From Candidatus Woesearchaeota archaeon (lineage in GTDB: Archaea; Nanobdellota; Nanobdellia; Woesearchaeales; UBA10216): DNA of 32,767 nt. The stretch lies in NCBI GenBank assembly GCA_016188205.1, contig JACPIG010000020.1:1-32767 (forward strand), given 5' to 3'. Below, piece by piece: positions 803-21,285 of this stretch. The notes below the pieces were generated by a model. It had not been told where the DNA came from, made no database searches, and was given only the letters and a program-made list of their open reading frames with translations. How positions within the stretch are numbered: position 1 is the stretch's first letter; every line of letters begins with the position of its first letter. The translations under genes and the position numbers were made by a program.

Positions 803-839
803 AGATGCAGATACAAGCTCGCAAGCTTTGGCTGCTGTG

Positions 840-858
840 CCCTTTGCTTTGCAAAGGG
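840..858 (+). other. Perfect 8-bp hairpin (CCCTTTGC-TTT-GCAAAGGG) in the ATPase/membrane-gene spacer
   Basis: Read directly from the sequence. Function unknown; possibly an intra-operon processing or attenuation signal. Confidence 0.4.
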
Positions 859-876
859 TTAATTAGGCTTTGAAAA

Positions 877-1692: not shown

Positions 1693-1695
1693 AGA

Positions 1696-2805: not shown

Positions 2806-2806
2806 A

Positions 2807-6333: not shown

Positions 6334-6393
6334 TTTCTGTTGCCGTTTGTATGTATGTGTTTGTGTTGGTGCTTGTGTGTGTTTTCCTCTTAA

Positions 6394-6423
6394 GCGGAAC
6401 TCCAGTAGTCAGCCCGCTATTAT
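6394..6423. repeat. Copy 1 of a perfect 30-bp direct repeat GCGGAACTCCAGTAGTCAGCCCGCTATTAT
   Basis: Exact match to 6607..6636, read directly from the sequence. Confidence 0.95.
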
Positions 6424-6466
6424 ATTAAATCGCATTAATTTTCGAACTTTTGATATGCGATTTAAT
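6424..6466. repeat. Hairpin a: 12-bp perfect inverted repeat ATTAAATCGCAT / ATGCGATTTAAT with a 19-nt loop containing TTTTCGA
   Basis: Read directly. Related in stem and loop sequence to hairpin b. Confidence 0.9.
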
Positions 6467-6469
6467 GTT

Positions 6470-6513
6470 TAGCAATTCGCACAAGATTTTTCGATAATTT
6501 ATGCGAATTGCTA
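6470..6513. repeat. Hairpin b: 12-bp perfect inverted repeat TAGCAATTCGCA / TGCGAATTGCTA with a 20-nt loop containing TTTTCGA
   Basis: Read directly. It forms a tandem pair with hairpin a. Confidence 0.9.
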
Positions 6514-6606
6514 TTAATTAGTTTTTAAATAGTATTTTGCATCAGGGGATTAATGCAGGTTTTGTTGTTCTGGGTTTTTCCTAATGCTTCTTTCTCGTCT
6601 CTTTTG

Positions 6607-6636
6607 GCGGAACTCCAGTAGTCAGCCCGCTATTAT
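6607..6636. repeat. Copy 2 of the perfect 30-bp direct repeat
   Basis: Exact match to 6394..6423. It lies 30 nt downstream of the moxR stop. Confidence 0.95.
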
Positions 6637-6665
6637 TTTTAGTCTGTTATTCAAACATTTCTATA

Positions 6666-7607
6666 CTACTTTGTCTTCTCAATCAGCTGTGTTATCGCGT
6701 CATCGGTTGTCATTCCTTTTCTTTCTGCCTCAAAGTTCAGTATGACCCTGTGCCTCAGTATGGGGTATGCCATCTTTGCAATATCTTCAGACGCAACGTG
6801 ATTCCTTCCGTTTATCAGCGCCCTTGCCTTTGCCGCGAGTATCAGCCCGATTGTTGCTCTTGGTGATGCTCCGTACTGTATGAGGTCAAAGTTCCTTGTC
6901 TTCGTCACCAGCTTCAAAATCTTCTCTTTAAGGTCTGAAGCTATCGGCACCTGCCTCGCATATCCTTGCAGCGCGAGCAGCTGTGTTTTGTCAAGCACTA
7001 TCTTCAGCCTTCTGTCTTTCAGCTCTGCGCCGTATCTGTTGACTATTTCCATTTCTTCCTGGTAGGTTGGGTAGCCGATCTTTATTTTCAAAAGAAATCT
7101 GTCTGCCTGTGCCTCAGGTAACGGATACGTTCCTTCCTGCTCAATGGGGTTTTGTGTTGCAAGCACGAAGAACGGCGCGTCCAGCTTGTATGTTGAGTTT
7201 CCTACTGTGACCTGCTTTTCCTGCATCGCTTCAAGAAGGGCGGATTGGGTTTTTGGCGTTGCCCTGTTTATCTCGTCAGCCAGCACTATGTTGGCGAATA
7301 TTGGGCCGGGGTGGAAGCGGAACTCCCTTTTGCCGCTTATCTCCTCTATGACGTATGTGCCTATTATGTCAGAGGGCATCAGGTCTGGCGTGTTCTGTAT
7401 CCTGCTGAACTTCAGGTCCATTATCCTTGCTATCGTCCTGACCATCATTGTCTTGGCCAGCCCGGGGTAGCCTTCAAGCAGCACGTTGCTGTCGCACAGC
7501 AGCGACACAAGTATCTGCTCTATGGCTTCCTGCTGCCCGACTATTATCTTGCTTATCTCTGCCTGCACGTCCTCAAATGTCTTTTTGTAAGCCTGCATTT
7601 CCATCAC
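6666..7607 (-). CDS. moxR: MoxR-family AAA+ ATPase
   Basis: 313 aa. Walker A GYPGLAKT, Walker B LADEINRA, and the whole sequence is collinear with MoxR/RavA-type ATPases. DUF58 and vWA genes sit in the same operon. Confidence 0.9.
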   Translation of the reverse strand: MMEMQAYKKTFEDVQAEISKIIVGQQEAIEQILVSLLCDSNVLLEGYPGLAKTMMVRTIARIMDLKFSRIQNTPDLMPSDIIGTYVIEEISGKREFRFHPGPIFANIVLADEINRATPKTQSALLEAMQEKQVTVGNSTYKLDAPFFVLATQNPIEQEGTYPLPEAQADRFLLKIKIGYPTYQEEMEIVNRYGAELKDRRLKIVLDKTQLLALQGYARQVPIASDLKEKILKLVTKTRNFDLIQYGASPRATIGLILAAKARALINGRNHVASEDIAKMAYPILRHRVILNFEAERKGMTTDDAITQLIEKTK

Positions 7608-7629
7608 CTTTTTGTTTTGTGTTTTTGTT

Positions 7630-8445
7630 CTATGTTCCCTTGGCTATCGCTGTGAAGTAGTTTTTCACTATTTCCTGCTGCTCCCTCGGTATCTTTTCCT
7701 CGTAAGCGGCTGCTGAAACCGCGAATGCCTCTTTCGGCTCGCTGTCGGCAAACTCACTTTCCTCAGCGTCTTTTATCTGCCTTATGTTTATGGAGTCGCC
7801 TGCCGGCTTTATGACCAGTTTAAGTTCTTCTTCGCCGAGCTTTGCTATGCTTGGAGCGCCGAATATGTCGTCCTCGCTTGCCAGCTTCGCGCCCCCTTTT
7901 TTGCCGCCGCCTGCGCCGCCGGGTGTTGGCTCGCCTTTTCCCAGCTCAAAGCTCACGTTTATTTCTGTAGCTGCCTTCACTTTTTCCACTGCCGCGTCTA
8001 TGGGGTCAAGCTTTATTGACACTGGTGCGAGCAGAAGCACGAGGAAGCACAAAAGCGTTATTATGCCTGCTTTTGCAAATGATTTCCTGTCATCCAGGAA
8101 CTCTGCTTCCTCAACGTTTCTGAGTTCTGTCAGGACTTCCTGGTGAAGCTCGTTCACCACCGGGTTTTCCGCGTTTATGTACTCTGCTGAAGTCCTCAGC
8201 CTTTCGTTCAGCCTTGGGTAGTATTCCTCAACCTTTCTTATCTTGCTTATGCTTGCCCTTTTTGCAGTTTCAACTATGAGGTATGCCATGGTTATGGAAA
8301 ACGCGAGTATTGCAGGTATGTTGAATATTGAGAGCACAAGGTATGCTGCAAGGAAAACTATGAGGGCGTCAAGCATTACTGTGAATATTAGTGCCTTGTT
8401 AAGCCCTGCTCTGAGCTCCTTTAGCGCGGTTGCGAGTATTTTCAT
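7630..8445 (-). CDS. Membrane protein of the MoxR/vWA operon with a Gly-rich linker
   Basis: 271 aa. Three predicted TM helices and a PTPGGAGGGKKGGAKL tract. Tightly packed between neighbouring operon genes. Confidence 0.6.
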   Translation of the reverse strand: MKILATALKELRAGLNKALIFTVMLDALIVFLAAYLVLSIFNIPAILAFSITMAYLIVETAKRASISKIRKVEEYYPRLNERLRTSAEYINAENPVVNELHQEVLTELRNVEEAEFLDDRKSFAKAGIITLLCFLVLLLAPVSIKLDPIDAAVEKVKAATEINVSFELGKGEPTPGGAGGGKKGGAKLASEDDIFGAPSIAKLGEEELKLVIKPAGDSINIRQIKDAEESEFADSEPKEAFAVSAAAYEEKIPREQQEIVKNYFTAIAKGT

Positions 8446-8446
8446 T

Positions 8447-8953
8447 TTAGCATGCTTCGTTAAGCCGCTGCCTTAGTGCGCACACCTCTGCTCTCAGGCT
8501 TGATACCCTGGCTTCAAGCTCTGCTGCGTATTGCTGCTGCGTTTTAAGTGCTGATTCGGATGTTGACAGTTCTGATTTTGTTGATGACAGGTCTGCTTCT
8601 GCTGCCTTGAGCTTTGTAAGGGTGTCTATAAGCTCGCTTCTTGTCCGGGCAAGCTCGTCTGCCAGCTTTTCATTGTAGTCGCTTATGTTTGTGTAGAGCG
8701 TGTCAAACTGCTCCTTTGCCTTGGTTTTGAGCTTCAGCTCCTCGTTTACATTGCCAAGCTGGGCTTTTTGCTGCGAGAGGTTGTAGTTGAGCTTGTTTAG
8801 CTGGTTCAGCTTGTCGCCGTAGCTCAGGGACAGGTTCTTGTATGTTACCTGGTAGTAGGTTGTGAGCCCTGCCATCACTCCCAATACGACTATTACGAGC
8901 AGTAGCAGGAACAGGTTTACGTTCCTTCTTATATACGCCATGGCTCTTTTCAC
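8447..8953 (-). CDS. N-terminally anchored coiled-coil protein
   Basis: 168 aa with one TM helix followed by heptad-like sequence. The GTG start at 8953 overlaps the upstream stop (GTGA). An alternative ATG lies at 8941. Confidence 0.6.
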   Translation of the reverse strand: MKRAMAYIRRNVNLFLLLLVIVVLGVMAGLTTYYQVTYKNLSLSYGDKLNQLNKLNYNLSQQKAQLGNVNEELKLKTKAKEQFDTLYTNISDYNEKLADELARTRSELIDTLTKLKAAEADLSSTKSELSTSESALKTQQQYAAELEARVSSLRAEVCALRQRLNEAC

Positions 8954-11346
8954 CTCAATTGCTTATTTATTCTTTTTGTTTCCATGATTCTGCGGACAGC
9001 TATCTCAAAGAGGAATATGCAGAGGGCTGCAAGCGCAAATGCCCATGAGTAGCTCTTGCTGTCTGTCTTAACCCTTCTTGAGTCCTGCTTCACCTTGTTT
9101 ATTATGCCTTGAACGTCGTCTGGTGCAAACATGTCCCCGTTTGTTATGGCAACTAATTCGCTCAGGCTGGGGTTCATTCCTGTCCTGCTGAGCTCCTTGT
9201 CATGGTTTACCGCGGTTATTGCGTCAAAGAAGCTGTAAAACCCTGCCTCTTTTGGGGTGTAAGAAGCTGTATACAGCTTTTCGCCTTCTTTTGAGAAGTT
9301 AAGGTTTGGAGCCGCAGGCGGCTTTCTTGATATGACTCTTATCTCAAGCTCTTCGCCAAGGTATATGTCGTCCATGTCAACGTCAAAGTCCTTGTTCCTG
9401 CTCAGGTCGCCTATCACCCAGTTTGCTGTTCTTGACAGCAGGATGGAGTTCTGCCTGCCGAGCATCTGGCCGTTCCACGCTGAGCCGTCGTCTGTTGAGA
9501 GAGCAGCTATCCTTCCCAGCCCGAAGCGCCATGTCGTGAGTATTGGCACATTGTTTGCTGTTGTGACAAGAAGCTGCGCCTGTGACTTTGGTATGACGAA
9601 GTTGTAGCCTGTAACAGATGCCTTCAGCTTTACGTTTCTGGTTATGAAGTGATAATTGTTTACTGCCTCAAGCCCGTATGTGTCGTTTGCCTTCTCTGAC
9701 TCGCCGAGAACGATTTTGATTTTTTCTGTTTCCTTCGGCTCAAAATATGCCCCTTTTCCTGCATTTGCAATGTCCAGCATGTGCTGTGTGTCTGTCCTTT
9801 CTCCAACCCCGACCGCGTACACCTTTGCGCCTGTAGATGCAGCCACTCCTGCCGCTCTTATATCATCTGCCTGAGGCCCTCCTGCTATGCCGTCTGATAT
9901 CAGTATTATGTTTTTGCTGCCGTGGGCTGATGAGAGCATGTCTGTTGCTGCAGAAATCCCTGAGGCTATGTCTGTGCCCCTGCCATAGGTTATTCTTTCT
10001 ATCTTTTCGCCCAGGTCAGGGTTGTCAGAGAGCTTGGCAATGTCAGAGACTTTGTGGGGGACTGACTCAAATGCTATCACGCCCACGTTGTCTGTTTTCT
10101 TCAGGTCGTTTAGTATTGAGAGTGCAAGCGCCTTCTCAACATCTTTTACGCTATACCTGCTTGCCTTGTTGAATGTGCTGCCTGTGCTTCCTGACACGTC
10201 TATGAGGAGCACAACATTTACTTCTTTCTTCGGCTCTTCCTTGCCTGTACCGACAACAACAGGAAGCAGAGCCTCATAGCTCTTGTAGTAAGGCGACTTG
10301 TAGCTGTCCCTGTCAAAGGAATTCTTTCCTCCTATAACAAACAGCCCGTTGCCTTCAAGCACGTAATTGCTTAATGTGTCAAGAGGCAGTTTCTCTGCCT
10401 TTATGTCGTTTATTATGACTGCTGCATATCCTTCTATGTCTTCCGGAAGCGCGCTTGCTGTCTTTACATCGTATATGCTCGTGAATATCTGTGCTGCAGG
10501 AGAGTTCTTCTCCGTTACGAGCAGAACCTTTGGCTTTGGCTGAACCTTGACTGTCTTTATGAAATGATTGTTCTGCGGGAAATAATCTTCTGAGCTTATA
10601 TCTGCCGTAATCCTGTGGTATCCTTCAGCGAGGCTTTTTGTGAACTCCAGCTTTATGCTGCCGCTTACCGGCTGGTCTATTGCAAGCTCATTGTCCACTA
10701 TGACTCGCAGCTTGTACGGCACTATTGTGCCGGTCTGCCTTACAGTGACTTCAAAGGTGTTTTCAGCGTCTGCTGTTGTTTCAGAAGGGCCTTCAACTGT
10801 GACGTAGGCGTCTTTTTTCTCAGGGCTCAGCTTGACAGCGCTTATTGTTGTGTTAAGGGATGAGGCAAAAAGCATCATGTCTCCCAGCGACCTTCCATAG
10901 TTGCTGTTGCCGTCTGTTATGAGAAGGACGCTGTCGTCGCCCTGTATGTTTGCCAGTATTGCATCGCCTATTGCTGACCTGTTTCCTTCAGCCAGAGTCC
11001 TGACATTCACCGGGATTGAGCTGCTCAGCTTGGAAGCAAGCTGAGCTGCTGTTTTGTTGTCAAAAATTTCCATGGAAGCTGATTTGTCAACAAATATGTT
11101 CAGTTCAGGTTTTCCCTGTATGGCTTCCTGCCTGAGCTCAAACGGCTGCGCAAGTGCCATTATGAGCAGCGAGAGGGCTGCCAGCCTTGATGTGTAAAGG
11201 AACATCCTTTTCCATTTCTTGCCCTTGTTGAATGCCTGCTGTTCCCTGTAGTCTTTGAACCTGATAAAGTCGTGCTTTATTATGAAGAACAGGATTATTG
11301 CCAGGGGAATTATTGAGTACAGGAGCTGGGGGTTTTTGAAGTCCAT
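8950..11346 (-). CDS. BatA-type N-terminal anchor plus double vWA-domain membrane protein
   Basis: MDFKNPQLLYSIIPLAIILFF resembles a BatA N-terminal region. Two MIDAS-like motifs (FVDKSASM, LLIDVSGSTGS) and a C-terminal TM helix. The preferred start is ATG 11346, overlapping the upstream TGA (TGATG). The ORF track extends it to 11364. Confidence 0.8.
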   Translation of the reverse strand: MDFKNPQLLYSIIPLAIILFFIIKHDFIRFKDYREQQAFNKGKKWKRMFLYTSRLAALSLLIMALAQPFELRQEAIQGKPELNIFVDKSASMEIFDNKTAAQLASKLSSSIPVNVRTLAEGNRSAIGDAILANIQGDDSVLLITDGNSNYGRSLGDMMLFASSLNTTISAVKLSPEKKDAYVTVEGPSETTADAENTFEVTVRQTGTIVPYKLRVIVDNELAIDQPVSGSIKLEFTKSLAEGYHRITADISSEDYFPQNNHFIKTVKVQPKPKVLLVTEKNSPAAQIFTSIYDVKTASALPEDIEGYAAVIINDIKAEKLPLDTLSNYVLEGNGLFVIGGKNSFDRDSYKSPYYKSYEALLPVVVGTGKEEPKKEVNVVLLIDVSGSTGSTFNKASRYSVKDVEKALALSILNDLKKTDNVGVIAFESVPHKVSDIAKLSDNPDLGEKIERITYGRGTDIASGISAATDMLSSAHGSKNIILISDGIAGGPQADDIRAAGVAASTGAKVYAVGVGERTDTQHMLDIANAGKGAYFEPKETEKIKIVLGESEKANDTYGLEAVNNYHFITRNVKLKASVTGYNFVIPKSQAQLLVTTANNVPILTTWRFGLGRIAALSTDDGSAWNGQMLGRQNSILLSRTANWVIGDLSRNKDFDVDMDDIYLGEELEIRVISRKPPAAPNLNFSKEGEKLYTASYTPKEAGFYSFFDAITAVNHDKELSRTGMNPSLSELVAITNGDMFAPDDVQGIINKVKQDSRRVKTDSKSYSWAFALAALCIFLFEIAVRRIMETKRINKQLR

Positions 11347-13106
11347 CAGAAGTCGCCCCTCCATTTGACGTAAAGCAGCTCCGCAAGCAGCAGCAGGAAT
11401 CCTGCTATCAATAAGTATTCTTCAAGCTTCACGTCCCTTTTTTCCTGCCCTTCTTTTGCTGCAAGCCGCTTTTCCTCGTCAAGCAGCTTGTCTGCCTCTT
11501 TGCCCACGTCAGACTCTTTCTCGCTGAGCAGGCTCGCAGCTGCTTTTTTTGTGCCAAACGTGTAGAATCCTGCCTTGTCCATGTATTGCCTGTTTGCATC
11601 TGCAATAATTCTTCCTGTCCTGAAGTTGTAGTCGTTCAGTTCTTCTGTCTCTGTGAGGAATCCTATGAGCTTGTTCCAGAATATAGGATACGAAACTGTT
11701 GTCTTGAAGTCGCTGAAGTCGTCAAGTATCCCGTAATACACTATTTTGCCGAATCCTTCGTCCTTAACTGCGAGCATTGCTGCGCCGTCTGCGTCGGCCA
11801 CTACTGCTGTTCCTGCTTTTGGTGTTGAGTTGTAGTAGCGGAATGCAGTGCCGAAGTCAACGTCTGAAGTGAACTTGTTTATTATCCTTGCCGTGACTTT
11901 TGTGTTGTTGAGGCTGCCTCCAATTTGCACAGGCAGAAGCCCGCTGTCTATTGCCCCTGCGTTTTCCTGTGCAGTTATTATGAGCGAGCTTCCGTTCCTT
12001 ACCTTTTTCAGTGCCTCCTGATAGAAGTCAGGCAGTATGAGCCCTGGGGAAGCTTTGTGAATTATCAGTATGTCATAGTCAAGGCTTGGTATTACTGGCG
12101 GCTCTGCTGTGGCGAGCTGTATGTCCCGGGATGCCTGCAGGGCTGTTTTCAGGCTGCTTTTCTCTGAGTTGGTTATCAGAAGGACTTTTATTTTCTTGGA
12201 TGAAGGAGCGCTTATGTATGCGCGGTTGTCCGGGTCAAAATCATCCTTCTCCATTATCCTGAGCTCTGTTGAGCCGGAAGGCGTTGCAAAGTCAAAGGTT
12301 TCCACTGACTTTGGAAGGATTTTTTTTATAATCTGCTGTGTGCCCTGCTCGCTTATTATGCCTAATGTAAGTGTTTTCTGCTCGCTGTCATAGTTCTTTA
12401 CAACTGCTTTTGTAGCGGACTTGCCGAGGAAAAGGTCTATTATGCCCGCATTGCCTGCCCTGCCGCCAACATTTACAAACTCAACAGGTATGCCTTTTGA
12501 CAAAAGAACGCGCTTGGCAACATTCGGGTCAGGCCCTTCTGTGGCTATGAAGTCGCTTATGACAACCACCTTGCCTGTCTTTCCCTTCATGACGTCGCCT
12601 GCAAGCAGCATTGCGTCGCCTATGTTTGATGTTGTGTCGCTTGGCTTTGCTAAGGAAAGGATTTTTTCTGCTTCCTCGCGGTTTCCAGCCTCAAGAACAA
12701 GCAGGGGCATGTTCTGTGCAAGCACTATTGCTGCATCGCCGTGTATGCTTTTCCTCGCAGCATCGACAGCGTTTTGGAAGCGGTTGCCTGTCTGCATGCT
12801 TGCAGAGGTGTCAAGGACTATTGCTGTCTTCTCGATGGCATGTGAGCCGAAGACGGTTGTGTAAGGGGCTGTGAGGGCAAATGACAGGGCGGCAAGGCCG
12901 AGCAGTTGTATGAGGAAAAGGAGATTATTGAGAAGCCGCTTGAAAAAAGCCGCTTTTTTTGCGAATCCCTTTTCCCGCATGAAGAACATCAATGAGGGCA
13001 TGTTCCTCTCAACAGGCCTCGGCCTCATCAGGTATAGCAGGACCAGTATCAGCAGGCTGCCAAACGCATACCATCCAAGCTGGTTAGCAAACTGAATATC
13101 TGCCAT
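11346..13106 (-). CDS. BatA-type N-terminal anchor plus vWA-domain membrane protein
   Basis: 586 aa. MADIQFANQLGWYAFGSLLILVLLYLMRPRP, vWA MIDAS motif VLDTSASM, and a C-terminal TM helix. Confidence 0.8.
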   Translation of the reverse strand: MADIQFANQLGWYAFGSLLILVLLYLMRPRPVERNMPSLMFFMREKGFAKKAAFFKRLLNNLLFLIQLLGLAALSFALTAPYTTVFGSHAIEKTAIVLDTSASMQTGNRFQNAVDAARKSIHGDAAIVLAQNMPLLVLEAGNREEAEKILSLAKPSDTTSNIGDAMLLAGDVMKGKTGKVVVISDFIATEGPDPNVAKRVLLSKGIPVEFVNVGGRAGNAGIIDLFLGKSATKAVVKNYDSEQKTLTLGIISEQGTQQIIKKILPKSVETFDFATPSGSTELRIMEKDDFDPDNRAYISAPSSKKIKVLLITNSEKSSLKTALQASRDIQLATAEPPVIPSLDYDILIIHKASPGLILPDFYQEALKKVRNGSSLIITAQENAGAIDSGLLPVQIGGSLNNTKVTARIINKFTSDVDFGTAFRYYNSTPKAGTAVVADADGAAMLAVKDEGFGKIVYYGILDDFSDFKTTVSYPIFWNKLIGFLTETEELNDYNFRTGRIIADANRQYMDKAGFYTFGTKKAAASLLSEKESDVGKEADKLLDEEKRLAAKEGQEKRDVKLEEYLLIAGFLLLLAELLYVKWRGDF

Positions 13107-13138: not shown

Positions 13139-13420
13139 TTATTTATTTACTTTCTTATAAGACTCGGCGCAATGATTGGAGCAGAACCTGTACACTTCGC
13201 CTTTTATCTCTTTTTCAACAAAGTCCTCAACAATTGCCTTGCCGCATTTCGCACAGCGGGACATCTTGCTGCCTTCCTCGTAGCCCTTCATGAATCCCTC
13301 TTCACCGGGAGTTATCTCGTCTTCTTCCTCTTCCAGCTTCTCCCGCTCTTCCTCTTCATAGATGTCTTCCTCGTGCTCCTCTCCTGTGAATTCTTCTCCA
13401 TTCTTGTTATCATTCTGCAT
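13139..13420 (-). CDS. Small acidic protein with a C-terminal TRASH/YHS-like zinc ribbon
   Basis: CAKC-x20-CSNHC fits C-x2-C-x19-22-C-x3-C. GAGGTGG lies upstream of the ATG. Confidence 0.6.
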   Translation of the reverse strand: MQNDNKNGEEFTGEEHEEDIYEEEEREKLEEEEDEITPGEEGFMKGYEEGSKMSRCAKCGKAIVEDFVEKEIKGEVYRFCSNHCAESYKKVNK

Positions 13421-13487: not shown

Positions 13488-14174
13488 TCAGAACTCGCCA
13501 ATCTTTTTTTGCCCCCTGCTCCCCGCAACTCTCTTGTATGGCATCCAGCTCTTCCTGAATATCTCCGGGTGCCTGCTGAAGTTTTTTTCAAGGAATGCCT
13601 TTGTGAGTGGGTCTGAAGGGTATCCTGAGCCAAAGTTGCTGCCAATCTTCTTTTTGATTTTCTCTATTTCGTCCTCGCGCGTCACTTTTGCAAGTATTGA
13701 TGCTGCGCCGCACTCCACATGGTTCAAATCAGCTTTATGCTCCACAGCAACCTCAATGCCCTTGTTGTCAAGCAGCTTCATCAGATAGCGCTTGTAATTG
13801 ACCACGTTGTTGCTTGGGCTGTCAATTATCGCCTTTTCCGGCTTCAACGCGTTTATTATCTCGGCTGACTTGTGCGCCTCCAGCCAGTTCAGGTTCAGGC
13901 TGTCTGACTCAAGCGCAGCATCAATCTCAGCAGGCTGTATAACCACAATCTTGTGCCTTATGGCGATGCCTTTTATCCTGTCAAACAGCTTCCTCATCCT
14001 TCCGATTGTCAGCAGCTTTGAGTCCTTCACGCCTATGGCTTTAAGGCTCTCGCTGCCTTCCTCATCAACGAGGACTCCTGCCATTACCATTGGACCGATG
14101 ATGGGCCCTTTCGGAGAACTAAGGAAACCCTATAGTTCACTTCCGCTCTCATCAATTCCGCAGGTAATGCTCAT
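13488..14174 (-). CDS. rnhB: Ribonuclease HII, interrupted by a 30-nt in-frame insert containing TAG; proposed exons 14174..14140 and 14109..13488 (218 aa after splicing)
   Basis: The upstream in-frame reading is MSITCGIDESG-SEL*GFLSSP-KGPIIGPMVMAGV. Without the insert, the canonical RNase HII N-terminus GIDE(A/S)GRGPxIGP is restored. The rest of the ORF (DSKLLT, IDSPSNN, HKAD, ASILAKV, GSGYPSD) is typical RNase HII. Confidence 0.85.
14110..14139 (-). other. Putative bulge-helix-bulge (BHB) mini-intron in rnhB mRNA
   Basis: On the mRNA: central helix CGGA(14145-14142)/UCCG(14115-14112); 3-nt bulges AGU(14141-14139) and AAA(14111-14109); inner helix GAACU/AGUUC; a 13-nt loop carrying the UAG. 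Cleavage after the second nt of each bulge removes exactly 30 nt. Confidence 0.6.
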
Positions 14175-15205
14175 ATTGAAATAACCTCAAAATTTGTAGG
14201 GGTGAGTTCCCACATTTTGTCCTCTCTCCTTTTTACCAAGCCAAGCCTCTCCAATTCTTTTAATCTTCTGAACGCAGCCGTCCAGCAAACACCAGCCTCA
14301 GAGGCAAGATCTTTGGTTCTTTGTGCATCATTGAGCAGCATATTTAAATATTTATACTTTATATGAGAAACAGGCACGAGTTTGCTATCCGCCAAGCCCC
14401 AATAATCAATGCTTCTGACCCTGTGGTTTTTCACAAGTCCTTCTTTTTTAAGTTCTACTAGTATGTCTGATATTCTTGCATTAGATCGATTAAACTGACT
14501 GGCCAGGGATTCACTGGTTGAGAAATCATTTCCTCTTAAGTTGTTGATTATTTTGTTCCTAAGTGAGAATTTCGTATAATGCATTTGCTTATACTCGGAA
14601 AGCATTAATTGGAACCGCGCTCTTTTTTCGGGATGCAAATCGGCTATTACGATGGCGGCAAGCTTGTCGAAATTCTCTTTGCCACTTATAATATACCCTT
14701 CTCTATGGCGATCGGAAAAAGTATAGTCTACTCCAAATAATTCCAAGGATTTCTCGATAGATCCGACTCTTTTGGATTGCGCCATTCTAATCACCCTGCA
14801 ATTATGTGAGCCGCATTTAATATTCCCTTCTCCTGCAAAAAACCCCCGCAGAATTCCTGGATAAGAATCGGCATCAAATTGAGTTGAATTGACTATTTCT
14901 TTCCATTTTTTAACAACCTCAACAGATGCCAATCGCCAAATGAAATATGGCTTACGCGCCCTCTTATCTATATAGTTCCTGATTTGAACATTTGAAAGAG
15001 GAATTTTTTGGAACTGTCCTGTAGAATTATACACATATATTCGAATCTTTAGATCGGCTACATTGAAAATTTCCACTATTGTTTTATGAAATAGTTCAAC
15101 TAACTCCCAGCAGCTATTTGTGAAAGTAATTTCTGCTTTTGTTTTATTGTCACCTTCTGCCAGCCACAATCCAACACATTCAGCTAATTTCTTGTCACGC
15201 GTCAT
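14171..15205 (-). CDS. Free-standing double-motif LAGLIDADG homing-endonuclease-like protein fused to two winged-helix DNA-binding modules
   Basis: Motif 1 is VGLWLAEGD and motif 2 is LRGFFAGEGN, about 100 aa apart. The C-terminal region has SLASQFNRSNARISDILVELKKEGLV and DLASEAGVCWTAAFRRLKELERLGLV. GC is lower than in the neighbours. Its stop overlaps the rnhB ATG (ATGA). Confidence 0.75.
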   Translation of the reverse strand: MTRDKKLAECVGLWLAEGDNKTKAEITFTNSCWELVELFHKTIVEIFNVADLKIRIYVYNSTGQFQKIPLSNVQIRNYIDKRARKPYFIWRLASVEVVKKWKEIVNSTQFDADSYPGILRGFFAGEGNIKCGSHNCRVIRMAQSKRVGSIEKSLELFGVDYTFSDRHREGYIISGKENFDKLAAIVIADLHPEKRARFQLMLSEYKQMHYTKFSLRNKIINNLRGNDFSTSESLASQFNRSNARISDILVELKKEGLVKNHRVRSIDYWGLADSKLVPVSHIKYKYLNMLLNDAQRTKDLASEAGVCWTAAFRRLKELERLGLVKRREDKMWELTPTNFEVISI

Positions 15206-15365
15206 TTTTATAACCGCCAGAACACCAGCTTAAATGGCAGAGCTTCTTTTGGTGCCGAAAGAACTGAGCCAGCAGTTTAAATACTTTAGGCTGGCGTCTG
15301 TCCAGTGTCCAGTGAAACTTCCGAAAAAAGTGAAAGAATTCCGGTTAAAAGTGCATTTTATGAAA

Positions 15366-15454
15366 GGTAGCTGGGCTGGATTTGAGCCAACAGCCTATGG
15401 GTGCCTCAGAACGCTTACGAGTCCATCGGGCACTCCCGGCTACCCTACCCCGCT
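15366..15454 (-). tRNA. Intron-containing tRNA-like gene with an initiator-tRNA-like body and a CGU anticodon (possible pseudogene or diverged tRNA)
   Basis: Minus strand: AGCGGGG-TA-GGGT-AGCCGGGAGT-GCCC-G-ATGGA-CTCGTA[AGCGTTCTGAGGC]A-CCCAT-AGGCT-GTTGG-CTCAAAT-CCAG-CCCAGCT-A-CC. The 13-nt intron (15403..15415) sits at position 37/38 with a 4-bp helix CUCG/UGAG and bulges UAA and GCA. Defects: G4.A69 and A31.C39 mismatches, and the T-stem/acceptor region is 1 nt short. Confidence 0.5.
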
Positions 15455-15490
15455 ATACTGTTCAGGATAACGCCCCCACAGCATCAAAAC

Positions 15491-15502
15491 ATTTATATAT
15501 AA
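15491..15502. promoter_or_regulatory. TATA-like box ATTTATATATAA in the spacer between the tRNA-like gene (-) and the PRC-barrel gene (+)
   Basis: A/T-rich box about 40 nt upstream of the tRNA-like 5' end on the minus strand. Assignment is tentative. Confidence 0.35.
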
Positions 15503-15575
15503 CTGTATACCATAAATCACCACAAATCATTACTACTTAAAAAAGAAAAATATTTCAGGGACTTTTTGTGAGCAG

Positions 15576-15848
15576 GTGGGGACGATGGCGGAAGAGGAAA
15601 CAAAATTCTCAAAGCAGATAATAGGAAAGACTGTTGTCAGCAAGACAGGCAAAAGGTTTGGGGAAGTTGGCGACCTTGTGTTTGAGGCGAAGTCAGGGGA
15701 GCTGATACACATGGTTCTGTCAAAGCCAACTCCGTACACGTCAAAGCTTGAGCTTGAAAAAGACAAGGACGGGAACCTTCTTATCCCTTACAGCGCAGTC
15801 CTCGCCATAGGAGACTTCATGGTCGTGGCAGAAGAAGACATGGTTTAA
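15576..15848 (+). CDS. PRC-barrel domain protein
   Basis: IIGKTVVSKTGKRFGEVGDLVFEAKSGELIHMVL...IPYSAVLAIGDFMVV fits the PRC-barrel pattern. The likely true start is ATG 15585, preceded by AGGTGGGG. Confidence 0.7.
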   Translation: MGTMAEEETKFSKQIIGKTVVSKTGKRFGEVGDLVFEAKSGELIHMVLSKPTPYTSKLELEKDKDGNLLIPYSAVLAIGDFMVVAEEDMV

Positions 15849-16869: not shown

Positions 16870-19356
16870 ATGGAAAAAGAGGAGACATTCAGGCAGGAAG
16901 TTCAGGGAAAAAACTCGGGCAAAGGCATAAATGCCCCTGTCAGTTCTTTAGGTGAGGAGCTTGTCCTTGCAAAATCCGGCCTTTCAGTTTCGCGCGCAGA
17001 GATAAACTCCCTCGCCAGGCGGATTTCTGAGTTGGAAGAGCTCAACACCAAGCTAAGGGAACACATACTTCTGAGGGATTCCTTTGAGAGGAACCTGGAC
17101 AAGGAATACAAAAGGCAGCTCAGCCAGAAAGACGAGGTGATAAGAAGGCTTGCAGCACTCAGCACAAAAGATGCTCAGGCAGGAATATCAAACAGCACTT
17201 TGGCAGAAGCAAAGCCCGAGCCAGCCCAGGCAGATAGCCAGATTCAAACAAGCAGGGAAGAAGAGCTGAGAAGGCTTGGCGACCACTACAGGCAGAGAAG
17301 CGAAGCGCAGGAAAAGCTCTCCGCACAGCTGGCAGAGCAGCTCAACGACAAAAACACAGCCATACAGAGGCTCAAAGAGTTCGTTTCTGAGAGGGAAAAG
17401 CTGTCGCAGCAGATAGAGGAACAGCTGCAGAAGGAACTTGCTGAAAAGGAAGAAGAACTGAACAGCCTAAAGAGGGCTGGCAGCACAAGAACCGGCAGGG
17501 CTGCAACTTGGCTCAGGGAGCTTGAGCAGGCAAGACAGGAACTGAAGTTAAAGGAAGCAGAAGGCAGGAAGACTGTGCTTGAGCTTGTTGGCCTTAAGGA
17601 AACCGGGGCGATACTCGAAAGGAAGCTCAGGGACAGCGAACAGCAACTGCAGAAGCTGAAGGCAGAGAAAGAAAACCCCGTAGAGGACGAAAAAGCCAGC
17701 CAGCTGGCAAATAAGCTTCATGAGAAGGAAGAGGAAATCCGCCGCCTTACGAATTATTATGCTGACAAGGAACAGGCATACGAGGCAATACAGTTACAGC
17801 TTTCAGACCGCCTCAAGGAGAAAAACCGCGAAACAGAAAGGCTCAAAACATTCCTGGCAGAGAGGGAAGAGCTGTCGCAGAAGGTTGAAGAGCAGCTTCA
17901 AAAGGAAATAGCCGCAAAAGAGTCAGAGTTAAGTGAGCTCAGGCACACAAAAAGCCACGGAAAGGCGCTTATTCTCCAAAGGCAGCTTGAGCACGCATCA
18001 CAGGTCATCAGGCTGAAGGACTCAGCCAACAAAAAAATCCTGCTGGAGCTTGCCTCAGCCAAAGAAACAGGAGCCATACTCTCAAGAAAGCTGAAAGACG
18101 GGCAAGAGCACTCAGAAAGCCTGAAGGCGCAATATGAGAAGATAATTGGCACGATAAAGGCTGACAATGAAAGGATAATGAAAGGGCTCATAGGGGACTA
18201 CAACGCAAGGCTCGCGGCTGCAAAAACAGAAGCAGAGCGCACAAAGGCAGAGCTGTCGGCAAAGGAATCAGAGCTTCAAGTGCATAAGCAGCGCATAGAC
18301 GAGGCCATAAGGGAATTCGGCATAAGGGCGCAGACAGTCATATCCATGAGGGAAAGCATAGAGCCGCTTGAAAAAGCAGCAACACAGGCAGCAACGACAG
18401 CGGCAATCCAGGCAACGCAAGCTGCTCAGCAGGCAACACAGCAACAAGCAATCCCCACACAGGCTCCTGAATCCGGGCACGCAGAAACAATAACAAAAGA
18501 CGAGCTTGAGCAGTACGCCAGCAAGGCAAAGGTGCTGAGAGAAGCGCTCTACAGGAAGGACAGGGAGCTTACAAAAAGAGAAGCTGAGATGAGGCAGAAA
18601 GAGGAAGGGCTTTTATCAAGGGAAAAAGAAGTAAAGGCCATGATAACCACAGCAGAGCAGCGCCTCAAAGAGCTTGAAAGAAGAGAAGACTCAGGAGACA
18701 GAAAAGAGCAGATACTGCTAAAGCAGCAGGAGGCATTCAACCGCGAACTCCAAGCGCTTGAAGCAGCAGGAAGCAGGCTGACAATTGTGGAGTCAGAGCT
18801 GGAATCCCAGCTTACAGTCGCGGCAAGGCAGGCAGCCCCTTCAGTGACTCTGCCCACCCCATTCGCATCAGAACCTATCCAAATTCCCTCTGCGGCAAGA
18901 GAAGCGCCGCAGCAGCCGGAAAGCATAGCTGTAATGGAGCCTGTGCAGCAGAAAACCATTGAAGCAGGAGAAATAAAGGAAATAAAGCAGGAGAAGACGC
19001 TGTTGCAGAAGACAGAGCCAAAGCAGACAATGCCAAAGCCAGCACCAGCAACCGCAATACCCGCGATTAAAGCGCCAGCGATTAAGACATACACGCCAGA
19101 GCAGGCAGCCCCTATGCAAGCCAAGCCAAAGCAGCAACAGGCTTATCCGGCAACAGCACCAGAAAAACTTGCTGGCGGCTTAACCATCAACCTTGAAGAG
19201 CAAACCCTCGGCTACTCAGAAGTTGAAGAGGTAATGTCAATGATAGACGTTGCTATGCAGCACAAAGAAAGCATTGAGCAGATAAAGAACTCTCTTCTCG
19301 CATCAGGCTACTCAAAGGAAAACGTGGACAAGGCATTGAAAAAGATGAATCTTTAG
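16870..19356 (+). CDS. Long coiled-coil protein with an internal tandem duplication, Q/A/P-rich linker and a small C-terminal helical (UBA-like) domain
   Basis: 828 aa, rich in E/K/Q/L heptads. Two ~140-aa units align (RRLGDHYRQ...LKETGAILERKLRDSEQ vs RRLTNYYADKEQ...AKETGAILSRKLKDGQE). The C-terminal IKNSLLASGYSKENVDKALKKM is UBA-like by pattern only. Confidence 0.7.
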   Translation: MEKEETFRQEVQGKNSGKGINAPVSSLGEELVLAKSGLSVSRAEINSLARRISELEELNTKLREHILLRDSFERNLDKEYKRQLSQKDEVIRRLAALSTKDAQAGISNSTLAEAKPEPAQADSQIQTSREEELRRLGDHYRQRSEAQEKLSAQLAEQLNDKNTAIQRLKEFVSEREKLSQQIEEQLQKELAEKEEELNSLKRAGSTRTGRAATWLRELEQARQELKLKEAEGRKTVLELVGLKETGAILERKLRDSEQQLQKLKAEKENPVEDEKASQLANKLHEKEEEIRRLTNYYADKEQAYEAIQLQLSDRLKEKNRETERLKTFLAEREELSQKVEEQLQKEIAAKESELSELRHTKSHGKALILQRQLEHASQVIRLKDSANKKILLELASAKETGAILSRKLKDGQEHSESLKAQYEKIIGTIKADNERIMKGLIGDYNARLAAAKTEAERTKAELSAKESELQVHKQRIDEAIREFGIRAQTVISMRESIEPLEKAATQAATTAAIQATQAAQQATQQQAIPTQAPESGHAETITKDELEQYASKAKVLREALYRKDRELTKREAEMRQKEEGLLSREKEVKAMITTAEQRLKELERREDSGDRKEQILLKQQEAFNRELQALEAAGSRLTIVESELESQLTVAARQAAPSVTLPTPFASEPIQIPSAAREAPQQPESIAVMEPVQQKTIEAGEIKEIKQEKTLLQKTEPKQTMPKPAPATAIPAIKAPAIKTYTPEQAAPMQAKPKQQQAYPATAPEKLAGGLTINLEEQTLGYSEVEEVMSMIDVAMQHKESIEQIKNSLLASGYSKENVDKALKKMNL
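17266..18150 (+). repeat. Tandem ~435-nt (~140-aa) intragenic duplication within the coiled-coil gene
   Basis: Unit 1 is ~17266-17700 and unit 2 is ~17740-18150. They share the blocks ERLK.F..ERE.LSQ..EEQLQKE.A.KE.EL and L.ELV/A..KETGAIL.RKL.D. Confidence 0.75.
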
Positions 19357-19361
19357 GTTTT

Positions 19362-20309
19362 CTATCCAAGATGCTTGACAAGTATTGTGGCGTCCTCGTG
19401 CTGCTTGTAGTTGAAGCCGAGTTCTATGTTTATGGGAGTCTCAAACTCCCTTCCTGTTGTGCCTGCTGTGCCGAGAACGCAGTTTACAACCCTCTTGTTG
19501 TCAACAATGATCAAGTCTCCCTCATTGCCGCCATTCAGGCTTGTGCAGGCAACGCTGCCAACCCTTGACGAAACCTTGACATGCACGCGATTCCTGTTCT
19601 GGAAGCTTGAGTCGCACAACGCGCCTGAGTGCACAGCTCCAGTGCCCTTTTGCACTATTGAAAACGTGAACGCAATCCTGTCCTGGCCTCCAGGGCTCTG
19701 CTTGAAGTCCTCAATGTGAAGCGGCGAGCCGGAGTTTGAAACACTCTTTGCCTCGTCAACCTTGCACGTCGGCTCCTGCCCGAACCTGGGCAGCTCTTTC
19801 TGCACGCAGAACTGGACAGTTGAGTTGGTCTGATAGCGGTAGCAGATGTCAGCCCTCAAAGTGAACTGTGTGTTGCCGGGCAACGAATGCCTGTATTTGA
19901 AGGGCTCCTCGCCAGCGCCCCCGAAAGTTATGTGCACAGGGTCGCCATTGACGCACTTGCCTTCTTGGTCCTTGTGCGTGCTTGTAAGCCGCTCACTAAT
20001 CACCTTTGCATAATCAGGGCCGCCGAAATCAACAGGGCTTATGCCGGAAAGCTCAATCCTTGCCTCATTAGCCTCAATCGGGTGCTCGCCCTTGTTGAAC
20101 AGGCGCAGAGTTACATCAAAAGGGAACTGGGCGCCGTCAAAAACCTCGGAAGGCGGGCTGCCCTCAACAAACTTCATCTCCAAGCCGTCAAGCCCGCCGC
20201 AGAAAGGGGTTGTTCTTGAAGCAGGCTGCTTGTTGCCAGTGCAGCCATACAGAAAAACAAGAGCCACAACTGCAAGCGCAAGATACACCCTTTTTGAAGC
20301 CATAAGCAA
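19362..20309 (-). CDS. Secreted lipoprotein, paralog family member 1 (unknown function)
   Basis: Lipobox-like LVFLYGC. Shares the blocks F.EG.PP.E, L.N.G, CYRY..N...FC, SNSGSP and the terminal FNYK with 20341..21285 and 22446..23462. An alternative start MASKRV lies at 20303. Confidence 0.65.
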   Translation of the reverse strand: MLMASKRVYLALAVVALVFLYGCTGNKQPASRTTPFCGGLDGLEMKFVEGSPPSEVFDGAQFPFDVTLRLFNKGEHPIEANEARIELSGISPVDFGGPDYAKVISERLTSTHKDQEGKCVNGDPVHITFGGAGEEPFKYRHSLPGNTQFTLRADICYRYQTNSTVQFCVQKELPRFGQEPTCKVDEAKSVSNSGSPLHIEDFKQSPGGQDRIAFTFSIVQKGTGAVHSGALCDSSFQNRNRVHVKVSSRVGSVACTSLNGGNEGDLIIVDNKRVVNCVLGTAGTTGREFETPINIELGFNYKQHEDATILVKHLG

Positions 20310-20340: not shown

Positions 20341-21285
20341 CTAAGAAGGCGCTCTTACAATCTCAACAGTCTTTGAAATTGAGTCCCTGTAGCCGTACCT
20401 GAGCTTTACGCTCAGGGGCGTGTTGAATGCTGGCGTGTTCTTGAACCCTGCCATGTCCAGCTCGCAGAATACGCTGCGCTTTCCGCTGATAAGCTTAATC
20501 CTGCCGCTGGTAAGCGGCTTGCAGGTTGAGGTTATGTCGCGGTCAGCAACCCTGACTTCCTGCAGGCTTATCTCGTCAATCTCCTTGAAAGAAAGCCCTG
20601 CGCTGTAAGGATTGCAGTTCTGGCTGCCCTGCTCGTACACAGTTCCGCCGCCAGCATTTGAAACGCTGATAACAAACCTGAGCTTGTCCGTAGTGGGGTT
20701 AAGCTCAATCTTCGTGACTGCAACAGGAGCGCCCTGGCCTCCGGAAAGAGAAACGTCCTTTGTAGAGCAGACCTTCTGCTTTGAAGTCACGCCGAACGGG
20801 TCAGAATCAATGCACACAAGAGCAACAGCAAGAGTCTCGTAAGAATAGCACGAAGTCACCTGGATTGTCGGCTTGTAAGTGTCAATCCCCGGCTTGAGCG
20901 CAACATCCCCTGGAAACTCCTTAATCTCAAACTCGCCCTCAGGGTCAAAAGTGCCCCTGCCGCCAAGAGCGCCAATGCCGTCAGAAGTCTTCATGCCTGT
21001 AATTATGTTTGGGTCAAAGCCGGAAAGATAAACGTTTCCGCCGAACGTGCTGCCGTCAATGGTTGTTGCGCCGGCATTCTTGAGCTGCACAGCCACAGTG
21101 AACTTGCCCTCGCCCAGAAACCTCGCCGGAGGAGTTCCAGGCACAAAGCTCAGCACAAGTCCCTTTGTCCCTGTCCTGAACTTCTCAACGCCGCTCTTGG
21201 AATCCTTGATACCGACTTGACCCGTGCAGCCTGCAAACGCAACCATCAGCACCACAAGCAAAACAAAAACCAGCCTTTTATCCAT
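20341..21285 (-). CDS. Secreted lipoprotein, paralog family member 2
   Basis: Lipobox VAFAGC. SCYSYETLAVALVCIDSDP...KVCSTKDVSLSGGQGAPVAVTKIE is nearly collinear with member 3. Confidence 0.7.
   Translation of the reverse strand: MDKRLVFVLLVVLMVAFAGCTGQVGIKDSKSGVEKFRTGTKGLVLSFVPGTPPARFLGEGKFTVAVQLKNAGATTIDGSTFGGNVYLSGFDPNIITGMKTSDGIGALGGRGTFDPEGEFEIKEFPGDVALKPGIDTYKPTIQVTSCYSYETLAVALVCIDSDPFGVTSKQKVCSTKDVSLSGGQGAPVAVTKIELNPTTDKLRFVISVSNAGGGTVYEQGSQNCNPYSAGLSFKEIDEISLQEVRVADRDITSTCKPLTSGRIKLISGKRSVFCELDMAGFKNTPAFNTPLSVKLRYGYRDSISKTVEIVRAPS

Follow-up and report, generated by a model that had tools for sequence, protein, structure and literature searches.

A predicted bulge-helix-bulge mini-intron in the RNase HII gene of a woesearchaeal genome and its linkage to an upstream LAGLIDADG gene

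The DNA analyzed here is a window of 32,767 nucleotides (nt) from contig JACPIG010000020.1 (assembly GCA_016188205.1) of a Candidatus Woesearchaeota archaeon; positions given below are those of this window unless preceded by the label of another locus. On the minus strand of the window lies rnhB, the gene for RNase HII, in which the conserved block with the catalytic Asp and Glu is split by an insert of 30 nt, and the rnhB start codon is overlapped by the end of a gene for a protein resembling the LAGLIDADG homing endonucleases. From the sequence of this locus and its comparison with the homologous loci of other archaea, we conclude with high confidence that the insert is an archaeal bulge-helix-bulge (BHB) mini-intron of the rnhB mRNA, predicted to be removed from the RNA. 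The exons, the predicted intron and the elements of the predicted RNA structure are located as follows.

14140..14174 (-): rnhB exon 1, from the ATG (14174-14172) to the AG of the split Arg codon; encodes MSITCGIDESG plus AG and holds the catalytic Asp and Glu
14110..14139 (-): predicted BHB-type mini-intron of 30 nt, U GAACUAUAGGGUUUCCUUAGUUC UCCG AA, with the in-frame UAG at 14132-14130
13488..14109 (-): rnhB exon 2, the third base A of the Arg codon, then GPIIGPMVMAGV... to the stop codon
14142..14145 (-): 5' strand of the central helix, CGGA, exonic (last base of the Ser codon and the Gly codon); pairs with 14115-14112; positions 1 and 4 covary across 54 alleles
14139..14141 (-): 5' bulge, AGU, 3 nt, with predicted cleavage between 14140 and 14139; present in the minimum free energy (MFE) fold
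14116..14138 (-): inner hairpin h', GAACU(A)/(U)AGUUC, 5-6 bp, with the UAG inside the loop
14112..14115 (-): 3' strand of the central helix, UCCG, intronic
14109..14111 (-): 3' trinucleotide, AAA, with predicted cleavage between 14110 and 14109; no adjoining outer helix, that is, a relaxed site

Read on the minus strand from 14174, the 5' end of rnhB is ATG AGC ATT ACC TGC GGA ATT GAT GAG AGC GGA AGT GAA CTA TAG GGT TTC CTT AGT TCT CCG AAA GGG CCC ATC ATC GGT CCA ATG, and the conceptual translation of the unspliced sequence is MSITCGIDESG SEL*GFLSSP KGPIIGPM. The reading MSITCGIDESG SEL*GFLSSP that a preliminary description of this DNA had given upstream of the rnhB open reading frame (ORF) matches these letters exactly, and the 10-codon insert with an in-frame TAG that it placed within the catalytic block is borne out by the sequence (14139..14110). 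The same description had argued that canonical cleavage of the bulges, as opposed to simple deletion of the ten codons, yields the consensus Arg-Gly-Pro. Indeed, in silico cutting after the second nucleotide of each trinucleotide takes out 14139..14110 (30 nt), joins AG|A into an Arg codon and restores the catalytic block GIDESGRGPIIGP; the predicted spliced junction is GATGAGAGCGGAAG|AGGGCCCATCATC in the window and GGN-AG|A-GGN-CCN in other alleles. The spliced product of 218 amino acids (aa) matches the Pfam family RNase_HII over positions 1-197 of 199 (E 1.9e-41), compared with only 15-197 for the truncated ORF, which begins at 14090 with MVMAGV. From residue 5 on (GIDEsGRGPiIGPmV), it aligns without gaps to the RNase HII structures of Pyrococcus and Thermococcus (PDB 1uax and 2dfh; GIDEsGRGPiIGP vs GvDEAGRGPvIGP). 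The unspliced RNA encodes only a 14-residue peptide, so that production of an active RNase HII would require splicing.

The proposal that the insert and its borders fold into a BHB motif stands, with a qualification at the 3' site. The MFE fold of an 86-nt context reproduces the inner hairpin, the central helix and, on the 5' side, the 3-nt bulge, whereas the 3' bulge is open: AAA is contained in a 3 x 10 nt internal loop, with no helix to close it. An outer helix closing the 3' bulge, as in the strict hBHBh' motif, is not found in this fold. The sole exon-exon pairing is the distant GAUGA/UCAUC, which is dictated by the Asp-Glu and Ile-Ile codons; the weakness of the outer helix had been conceded already in the preliminary description. 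The 5' site is canonical (H, 3-nt bulge, h') and the 3' site is unclosed, so that the motif is of the relaxed HBh' form.

To place the insert in an evolutionary context, we compared 80 rnhB loci from species-representative genomes of Woesearchaeota and Nanoarchaeota that were retrieved by similarity to exon 2 alone. Extra DNA between GIDE(A/S)G and (R)GP is present in 12 of these 80 loci, with lengths of 22, 27, 31, 31, 33, 34, 35, 35, 38, 39, 45 and 45 nt. A metagenome pattern that can be satisfied only by insert-bearing alleles retrieved 48 contigs, and in all of these (48/48) the gene is an RNase HII gene with an insert of 20-42 nt at the same codon; the pattern fixed exon 1 and the MG...R junction, and these features accordingly hold by construction in the 48 loci. 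The total comes to 60 insert-bearing loci with 54 distinct alleles and inserts of 20-45 nt, all at the same codon. The insert length is a multiple of three in 15 of the 54 alleles, about the one third that is expected without coding constraint, and is frame-shifting in the remaining 39; retention of the insert leads to an in-frame stop in every allele (54/54). In all 13 insert-bearing loci that were found through exon 2 alone, exon 1 is intact, with a start codon and GIDE(A/S)G, and in all 13 loci found without a junction constraint, the canonical cleavage rule rebuilds an Arg codon split 2+1. Across the 54 alleles, the 5' trinucleotide is AGA in 41, AGU in 9, CGA in 2 and AGC in 2; the 3' trinucleotide is UAA, AAA, UUA, AUA or AGA, with A as the final base throughout the family except for a single G. 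Given this composition, canonical cleavage always yields an Arg codon. The RNase HII proteins nearest to that of the window (78-93% identity) are uninterrupted and 217 aa long; of the 120 protein clusters closest to it, about 12 either lack the N-terminal part or start inside the insert (the clusters annotated in this way are P0004, P0010, P0017, P0031, P0043, P0060, P0061, P0064, P0066, P0074, P0088 and P0115).

A search of viral contigs with the insert pattern gave no match, so that nothing in these contigs indicates a viral vector. One metagenome-assembled genome (NC_groundwater_435, JACPIH01) contains two rnhB loci: L007 has no intron, and L011 has a 45-nt insert and is identical to L010 of another bin. 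The pair may represent a genuine polymorphism, or the bin may be contaminated or contain mixed strains.

Of all the arguments for a predicted RNA structure of the BHB layout, 5'-H-bulge-hairpin-H'-bulge-3', the strongest is the covariation between exon and intron. Four exon bases, namely the third base of the Ala/Ser codon and the following GGN, covary with the four bases that precede the 3' trinucleotide; the pairs observed include CGGA/UCCG, AGGC/GCCU, UGGC/GCCA, CGGU/ACCG, GGGC/GCCC and AGGA/UCCU. Because synonymous exon positions track intron bases, protein coding cannot account for this pattern. All four pairs of the central helix form in 47 of the 54 alleles, compared with a mean of 14 and a maximum of 26 in shuffles, and with fixed spacing 209 of the 216 cells of this helix are paired. 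Of the 216 cells for the four basal pairs of the inner helix, 210 are paired, and each of the four pairs has undergone changes on both sides. In a fixed-register pseudo-alignment, the register of which was chosen by us, 96.9% of the cells are paired vs 71.7% in shuffles, 108 cells are changed on both sides vs 24, and the covariation score is 0.741 vs 0.21, with none of 500 shuffles scoring as high. A shift of the 3' partners by 1-3 columns lowers pairing to 30-48%. The alleles thus display a 4-bp central helix with a 3-nt bulge 3' of each strand, an inner helix that closes the 5' bulge, and compensatory changes. Both the presence of inserts at the same codon in 60 loci and the covariation of both helices are what the preliminary description had proposed to look for in relatives, and its central inference of a BHB intron in the rnhB mRNA is strongly supported by these data along with the frame-shifting lengths and the ubiquitous stops.

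The machinery that would remove the intron can be outlined from what is known of archaeal tRNA splicing. In the transcript, the exonic CGGA would pair with the last structured bases of the intron, UCCG, and AGU would then bulge out beside the inner hairpin. The tRNA-splicing endonuclease EndA would cut both trinucleotides behind their second base (AG|U and AA|A), and a ligase of the RtcB type would join the exons, creating the AGA Arg codon and with it the block GIDESGRGPIIGP. Relaxed BHB forms are cut only by broad-specificity endonucleases (PMC5829648), and the absence of a closing helix at the 3' site implies an EndA of this kind; the alpha4-type EndAs of DPANN archaea bear an L3 loop and are associated with disrupted tRNA genes (PMC5829648). 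A candidate for a second substrate of the enzyme is located 1.2 kb from the rnhB intron, between the LAGLIDADG ORF and the divergent PRC-barrel and RFC genes:

15366..15455 (-): tRNA-Thr(CGU), with a 13-nt BHB-type intron (15415..15403) at 37/38, found by an ARAGORN intron search with a relaxed threshold (-i -ps80)

The acceptor stem of this tRNA contains a G.A mismatch, and 31-39 is an A.C pair; the gene is missed by ARAGORN under default settings and by an Rfam search of 15200-15580 at E<=1, and the Rfam search of the whole window at gathering thresholds yields no family match. The intron of the tRNA means that the genome needs EndA, and so implies that splicing machinery is present. In our reading, the motif of the tRNA-Thr intron lacks the inner helix, a complementary relaxation that hints at a resident enzyme tolerating both forms. 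In an intronless relative, L020, a normal tRNA gene is located directly upstream of rnhB.

Several observations weigh against the intron or limit the evidence for it. The folding energy of the 86-nt context is no better than that of shuffled sequences (z = -0.86, with 35 of 200 shuffles folding equally well), and the 3' trinucleotide does not form the canonical closed bulge. Exon 1 and the junction cannot be counted as findings in the loci from the metagenome pattern, and the pairing statistics depend on our choice of register. Pfam scans detected no gene for EndA or RtcB in the 32-kb window. A generic scan of the window for BHB shapes, combined with an ORF-rescue filter and aimed at further split genes, recovered the rnhB element among approximately 150 chance candidates and so did not discriminate; Pfam scans of the remaining genes of the window showed no truncated or split domain matches. 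The structure alone is therefore statistically unremarkable; what is remarkable is the exact repair of the motif. Accordingly, we hold the insert to be non-random because the consensus motif is exactly restored and because of the comparative data, and not on account of the folding energy.

Other explanations of the insert have to account for the same observations, and none appears attractive. That rnhB is a pseudogene, or is expressed as the truncated 200-aa ORF from 14090 that lacks the catalytic Asp and Glu, seems very improbable. Gene callers do annotate a truncated product here and in relatives (P0004, P0010, P0017, P0088 and others), but the relatives with an insert show none of the decay expected of a pseudogene, the competing possibility named in the preliminary description: exon 1 is intact in 13/13, exon 2 is a full-length open frame everywhere, and the inserts retain a covarying structure that would be unexpected in decaying sequence. 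In addition, no second rnhB is seen in the window. Just as improbable is programmed translational bypassing, whereby the insert would stay in the mRNA and the ribosome would hop over it. The inserts are short (20-45 nt) and AT-rich (35% GC vs 59% in the flanks), form a hairpin and contain an in-frame stop a few codons after the GGN codon, all of which would suit a bypass element. However, only 24 of the 54 alleles have identical flanking GGN codons, 2 of 54 repeat the B1 codon in the trinucleotide that precedes exon 2, and a hop from GGN to GGN would remove the invariant Arg-Gly of GRGP; moreover, bypassing leaves unexplained the covariation of the exon with the 3' end of the intron, the fixed 4-bp/3-nt geometry and the 2+1 split of the Arg codon in the 13 unconstrained loci. 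Translation of the insert through read-through or reassignment of UAG, which would produce a 10-residue loop within the motif, is compatible with the 30 nt in frame and the single UAG of the window, but it is barely conceivable for a family in which the length of 39 of 54 homologous inserts is no multiple of three and the stop, be it UAA, UAG or UGA, changes position from insert to insert; moreover, no insertion is seen here in the solved structures of RNase HII. An assembly artefact was considered as well and is ruled out by the occurrence of the feature in 60 independent assemblies. We therefore retain the BHB mini-intron as the explanation of the insert.

The gene that directly precedes rnhB is the second component of the locus.

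14171..15205 (-): LAGLIDADG homing-endonuclease-like gene, free-standing, 344 aa, with the motifs VGLWLAEGD and LRGFFAGEGN followed by two winged-helix domains

The TGA stop codon of this ORF (14173-14171) overlaps the rnhB ATG (as ATGA), and an overlap of stop and rnhB start, in the form of ATGA or GTGA, is found in most copies of the family. The protein of the window matches the Pfam family LAGLIDADG_3 at a borderline 22.4 bits (the cutoff being 22.5), besides its winged-helix matches; among 53 aligned family members, 52 match LAGLIDADG_3, with a best E of 3.5e-8. In these 53 sequences, G12, L13, W14, A16, E17 and G18 of the first motif and L119, G121, F123, A124, G125 and G127 of the second motif are invariant, and E126 is conserved in at least 90%. 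The AlphaFold2 (AF2) model of the 344-aa protein has a pLDDT of 93.4 and its best match in the PDB is I-DmoI (E 1.9e-6, TM 0.66 to target), followed by further matches to E-DreI, the bI3 maturase, I-Tsp061I and PI-SceI; a search of the PDB with the sequence profile of the family detected the C-terminal winged helix alone and no LAGLIDADG core. The ORF is predicted to encode a monomeric LAGLIDADG endonuclease of the I-DmoI type that has two motifs and carries two winged helices. The family has at least 379 members of about 340 aa, which public sources annotate as hypothetical, 'transposase' or 'winged helix-turn-helix transcriptional regulator'. Some copies are damaged, by an internal stop in L013, a frameshift in L100, reduction to a 93-aa remnant in L003, a deletion in L115 and loss of the first motif in L061. 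At two loci, L099 and L120, the ORF continues in frame through exon 1 (...LAGIDESGR and ...IAGIDEAGRF, respectively) and ends within the intron, leaving rnhB without a separate start codon; judging from these sequences, the spliced RNA would encode a fusion of endonuclease and RNase HII, and the unspliced RNA would encode the endonuclease alone.

The family is linked to the intron. A tblastn search with the 344-aa protein against all retrieved loci gave matches in insert-bearing loci only, always directly upstream and on the same strand. Among loci with at least 1.2 kb of upstream sequence, 14 of the 42 that bear an insert have a member of the family, compared with none of 50 intronless ones (Fisher p = 4e-6). 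Three more family members, chosen for their long contigs, each proved to lie directly upstream of an rnhB with an insert (29, 38 or 22 nt), and the remaining neighbor genes of these three are all different. The distribution is very patchy. A neighbor-joining tree built from 110 RNase HII sequences has 15 tips with the endonuclease gene, and 14 state changes are required to account for them; for its 45 tips with the intron, the number is at least 24, against about 35 expected at random. The closest relative of the window, L129 (93% aa identity), has neither the intron nor a member of the 344-aa ORF family, and its intronless rnhB site reads TGCGGAATTGATGAAGCCGGACGCGGTCCCATAATAGG; the downstream TRASH and BatA genes are kept. 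DNA homology between the window and L129 (88.8%) starts at 14108, and everything upstream of exon 2 differs, so that the comparison, which was meant to place the left boundary of the cassette, does not locate it. Upstream of rnhB, L129 has a different, divergently oriented LAGLIDADG gene. The identity between the window and L129 is 70-78% in the 24 codons around the site and 85-97% from codon 25 on, whereas that between the window and the distant, cassette-bearing L013 is 78-81% around the site and 47-77% from codon 25 on (47% in codons 25-36).

LAGLIDADG genes are generally frequent in this neighborhood, being found upstream of rnhB in 31 of 90 loci and downstream in 4 of 88. Near insert-bearing rnhB, LAGLIDADG_3 genes are present upstream in 20 of 39 loci and downstream in 2 of 34. 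At intronless rnhB, other LAGLIDADG_3 subfamilies, mostly in divergent orientation, occur within 1.5 kb upstream in 11 of 51 loci and downstream in 2 of 54. Examples of such genes of other subfamilies near the rnhB 5' end are given next, each preceded by the label of its locus.

L129:2977-3783; L002:1480-2646; L024:1558-2295; L012:1180-1797; L111:931-2145; L009:2063-2632 (-): other-subfamily LAGLIDADG_3-type ORFs, some with a winged helix

The 5' end of rnhB looks like a general hotspot for several LAGLIDADG lineages, which fits a favored homing target; what is exclusive to the intron-bearing alleles is the 344-aa family in the arrangement that overlaps the start codon.

The position of a LAGLIDADG gene directly upstream of, and linked to, the intron, a feature that the preliminary description had missed, changes the probable nature of the element. 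By analogy with collaborative homing, the intron and the endonuclease gene could together constitute a mobile cassette, a proposition for and against which we see the balance as even. The endonuclease gene would be translationally coupled to rnhB via the ATGA overlap, and the enzyme would cleave intronless rnhB alleles at or near the conserved coding sequence for GIDEAG|RGP. The intron, splitting the target, would shield its carrier, so that intron and endonuclease gene would be inherited together, and when a cut allele is repaired from the carrier, endonuclease gene, exon 1 and intron would be copied as a unit. The mosaic pattern of identity described above looks like a co-conversion tract. 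More tentatively still, the locus might be a composite selfish element that represents the first case of collaborative homing on a protein-spliced archaeal BHB intron, with the intron serving mainly as an immunity insert. Taken as a whole, the locus is, in our judgment, best and with good confidence explained by an rnhB BHB mini-intron that is probably one half of a mobile cassette.

The homing part of this explanation faces several adverse observations. The endonuclease gene is absent from 28 of the 42 insert-bearing loci; absence from two thirds is expected if endonuclease genes decay after fixation, and is equally compatible with independence of gene and intron. The presence of other subfamilies at intronless rnhB makes adjacency alone weaker evidence. 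The upstream flanks differ between genomes, so that two-sided homologous repair cannot explain transfer between species, and the mosaic pattern derives from some 70 nt of a highly constrained region. Finally, two loci have the ORF joined in frame to exon 1, and the winged helices of the protein are regulator-like. These points lend themselves to an alternative that accepts the intron as real but sees in the upstream protein no homing endonuclease for the site; the protein would instead be a domesticated DNA-binding regulator, a maturase-like cofactor for the relaxed BHB fold, or the product of a selfish gene with a preference for the rnhB 5' end, and the distribution of the intron would have a separate cause, for example, an ancient gain followed by many losses. 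The two winged-helix domains and the annotation of family members as transcriptional regulators agree with such a role, as do the bI3 maturase among the top structural matches, the translational coupling to rnhB with the fusions in L099 and L120, the many insert-bearing loci without the ORF and the other subfamilies near intronless rnhB. Nevertheless, we deem this alternative unlikely, if by far the most serious of those considered. The catalytic acidic residues of both LAGLIDADG motifs are conserved across the 53 members, and the family occurs beside insert-bearing alleles only (0/50 intronless loci; 3/3 further members). Decay and patchiness are typical of selfish endonuclease genes and not of a needed cofactor, and a splicing cofactor would not be missing from two thirds of the intron-bearing loci. 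A homing endonuclease acting together with the intron thus remains our favored interpretation of the upstream gene.

The rest of the window contains genes of diverse functions. Downstream of rnhB are a small TRASH zinc-finger gene (13139-13420) and a cluster of MoxR (AAA_3), DUF58, DUF7502, VWA and BatA-DUF7407-DUF7408 genes (5488-13106, minus strand); the part from TRASH to BatA is syntenic in L129, with 83% DNA identity. Farther along, at 32-5389 on the plus strand, are a type IV pilus/archaellum-like ATPase (T2SSE, cut by the edge of the window), two T2SSF membrane proteins and an 860-aa protein with a C-terminal Mrr_cat restriction-endonuclease domain. On the other side, an 828-aa ORF (16870-19356, plus strand) directly follows the gene for the RFC small subunit, where the RFC large subunit might be expected, and has no Pfam match at E<=0.01. 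Six large ORFs on the minus strand (19362-20309, 20341-21285, 21356-22405, 22446-23462, 23459-25546 and 26076-27239) have no Pfam match at E<=0.001.

BHB introns in archaeal pre-mRNA were reportedly described for cbf5, by Watanabe in 2002, Yoshinari in 2006 and Yokobori in 2009. For mRNA, papers on EndA published as late as 2025 still point to these three studies and to no others, and our targeted searches of the openly accessible literature found no report of a BHB intron in rnhB or in any DPANN mRNA, nor of a LAGLIDADG partner. The rnhB intron would therefore provide a second host gene for archaeal mRNA splicing, in another superphylum and in approximately one in six of the sampled species of Woesearchaeota and Nanoarchaeota, suggesting that endonuclease-mediated mRNA splicing in archaea is not a one-off. 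It would also offer a natural mRNA substrate for the recognition of relaxed BHB motifs by the splicing endonucleases of DPANN archaea. The public annotation of these loci would be wrong, given that it shows a truncated RNase HII without catalytic residues and labels the partner gene as a transcriptional regulator. The link to LAGLIDADG genes suggests a testable route for the gain and spread of tiny ORF-less BHB introns, which the work on cbf5 left open; should the mobile cassette prove real, it would supply a general mechanism for the gain of such introns, including those of cbf5 and the non-canonical tRNA introns, and rnhB of DPANN archaea would be an arena of several competing LAGLIDADG lineages. 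A family of at least 379 compact proteins that combine LAGLIDADG and winged-helix domains and have a predictable target could be of interest for meganuclease engineering.

Among the known systems, the closest is that of the cbf5 introns, which, like the rnhB intron, are short BHB-type introns of a protein-coding gene with the BHB motif at the exon-intron boundaries, are removed by the tRNA-splicing endonuclease without a spliceosome (as we infer for rnhB), and are sporadic among relatives, implying gain and loss. The size of 30 nt, which the preliminary description had called unusually small for an intron in a protein gene, is in fact ordinary, the cbf5 introns of Crenarchaeota being 16-44 bp long (PMC2738675) and the family described here 20-45 nt. 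The differences concern the host gene, given that the insert is inside the catalytic motif of rnhB, 35 nt from the start codon; the lineage, DPANN Woesearchaeota and Nanoarchaeota instead of Crenarchaeota; and the relaxed 3' site. Furthermore, the cbf5 intron was noted to be too short for a nuclease and has no known partner for mobility, whereas rnhB has the adjoining LAGLIDADG gene.

The mobile BHB introns of archaeal rRNA that encode the homing endonucleases I-DmoI, I-PorI and I-Tsp061I share with the rnhB system splicing of the BHB type, a monomeric double-motif protein of the I-DmoI kind and insertion into a highly conserved part of an essential gene. In contrast, the rnhB intron is only 20-45 nt long and resides in an mRNA, not in rRNA, and the endonuclease, which has two extra winged helices, is encoded not within the intron but ahead of exon 1, in a gene translationally coupled to the host gene. 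In this respect, the arrangement is closer to collaborative homing, as described for the free-standing endonuclease F-CphI beside an ORF-less group I intron in psbA of cyanophage S-PM2 (Zeng, Bonocora and Shub 2009, via PMC6083498). In both cases, a free-standing endonuclease gene adjoins a gene with an ORF-less intron and the two co-occur, and the proposed logic is the same: the intron would interrupt the target and protect its carrier, and the endonuclease would confer mobility. Unlike the psbA intron, the rnhB intron would be a protein-spliced BHB intron and not a self-splicing group I intron (it is 20-45 nt long, and the window has no Rfam match), the endonuclease is of the LAGLIDADG type instead of Endo VII-like, and the host is a cellular archaeon and not a phage; for rnhB, both the specificity of the enzyme and the protection by the intron are proposals.

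Outside archaea, the mRNAs of HAC1 and XBP1 undergo unconventional cytoplasmic splicing by IRE1 and RtcB, and the XBP1 intron is 26 nt long. These, too, are very short mRNA introns that are defined by stem-loops, are handled by a protein endonuclease and a ligase of the RtcB type, and change the reading frame; they differ in being eukaryotic and stress-regulated, in the nuclease and the recognition motif, and in having no link to a mobile element. The bypass elements of T4 gene 60 and the mitochondrial byps resemble the rnhB inserts in that they are short, hairpin-forming, stop-containing inserts in coding sequence that are absent from the protein. However, bypass elements need matched take-off and landing codons, which the rnhB inserts do not have, and do not require covariation between exon and insert, whereas the geometry of the rnhB inserts fits BHB cleavage.

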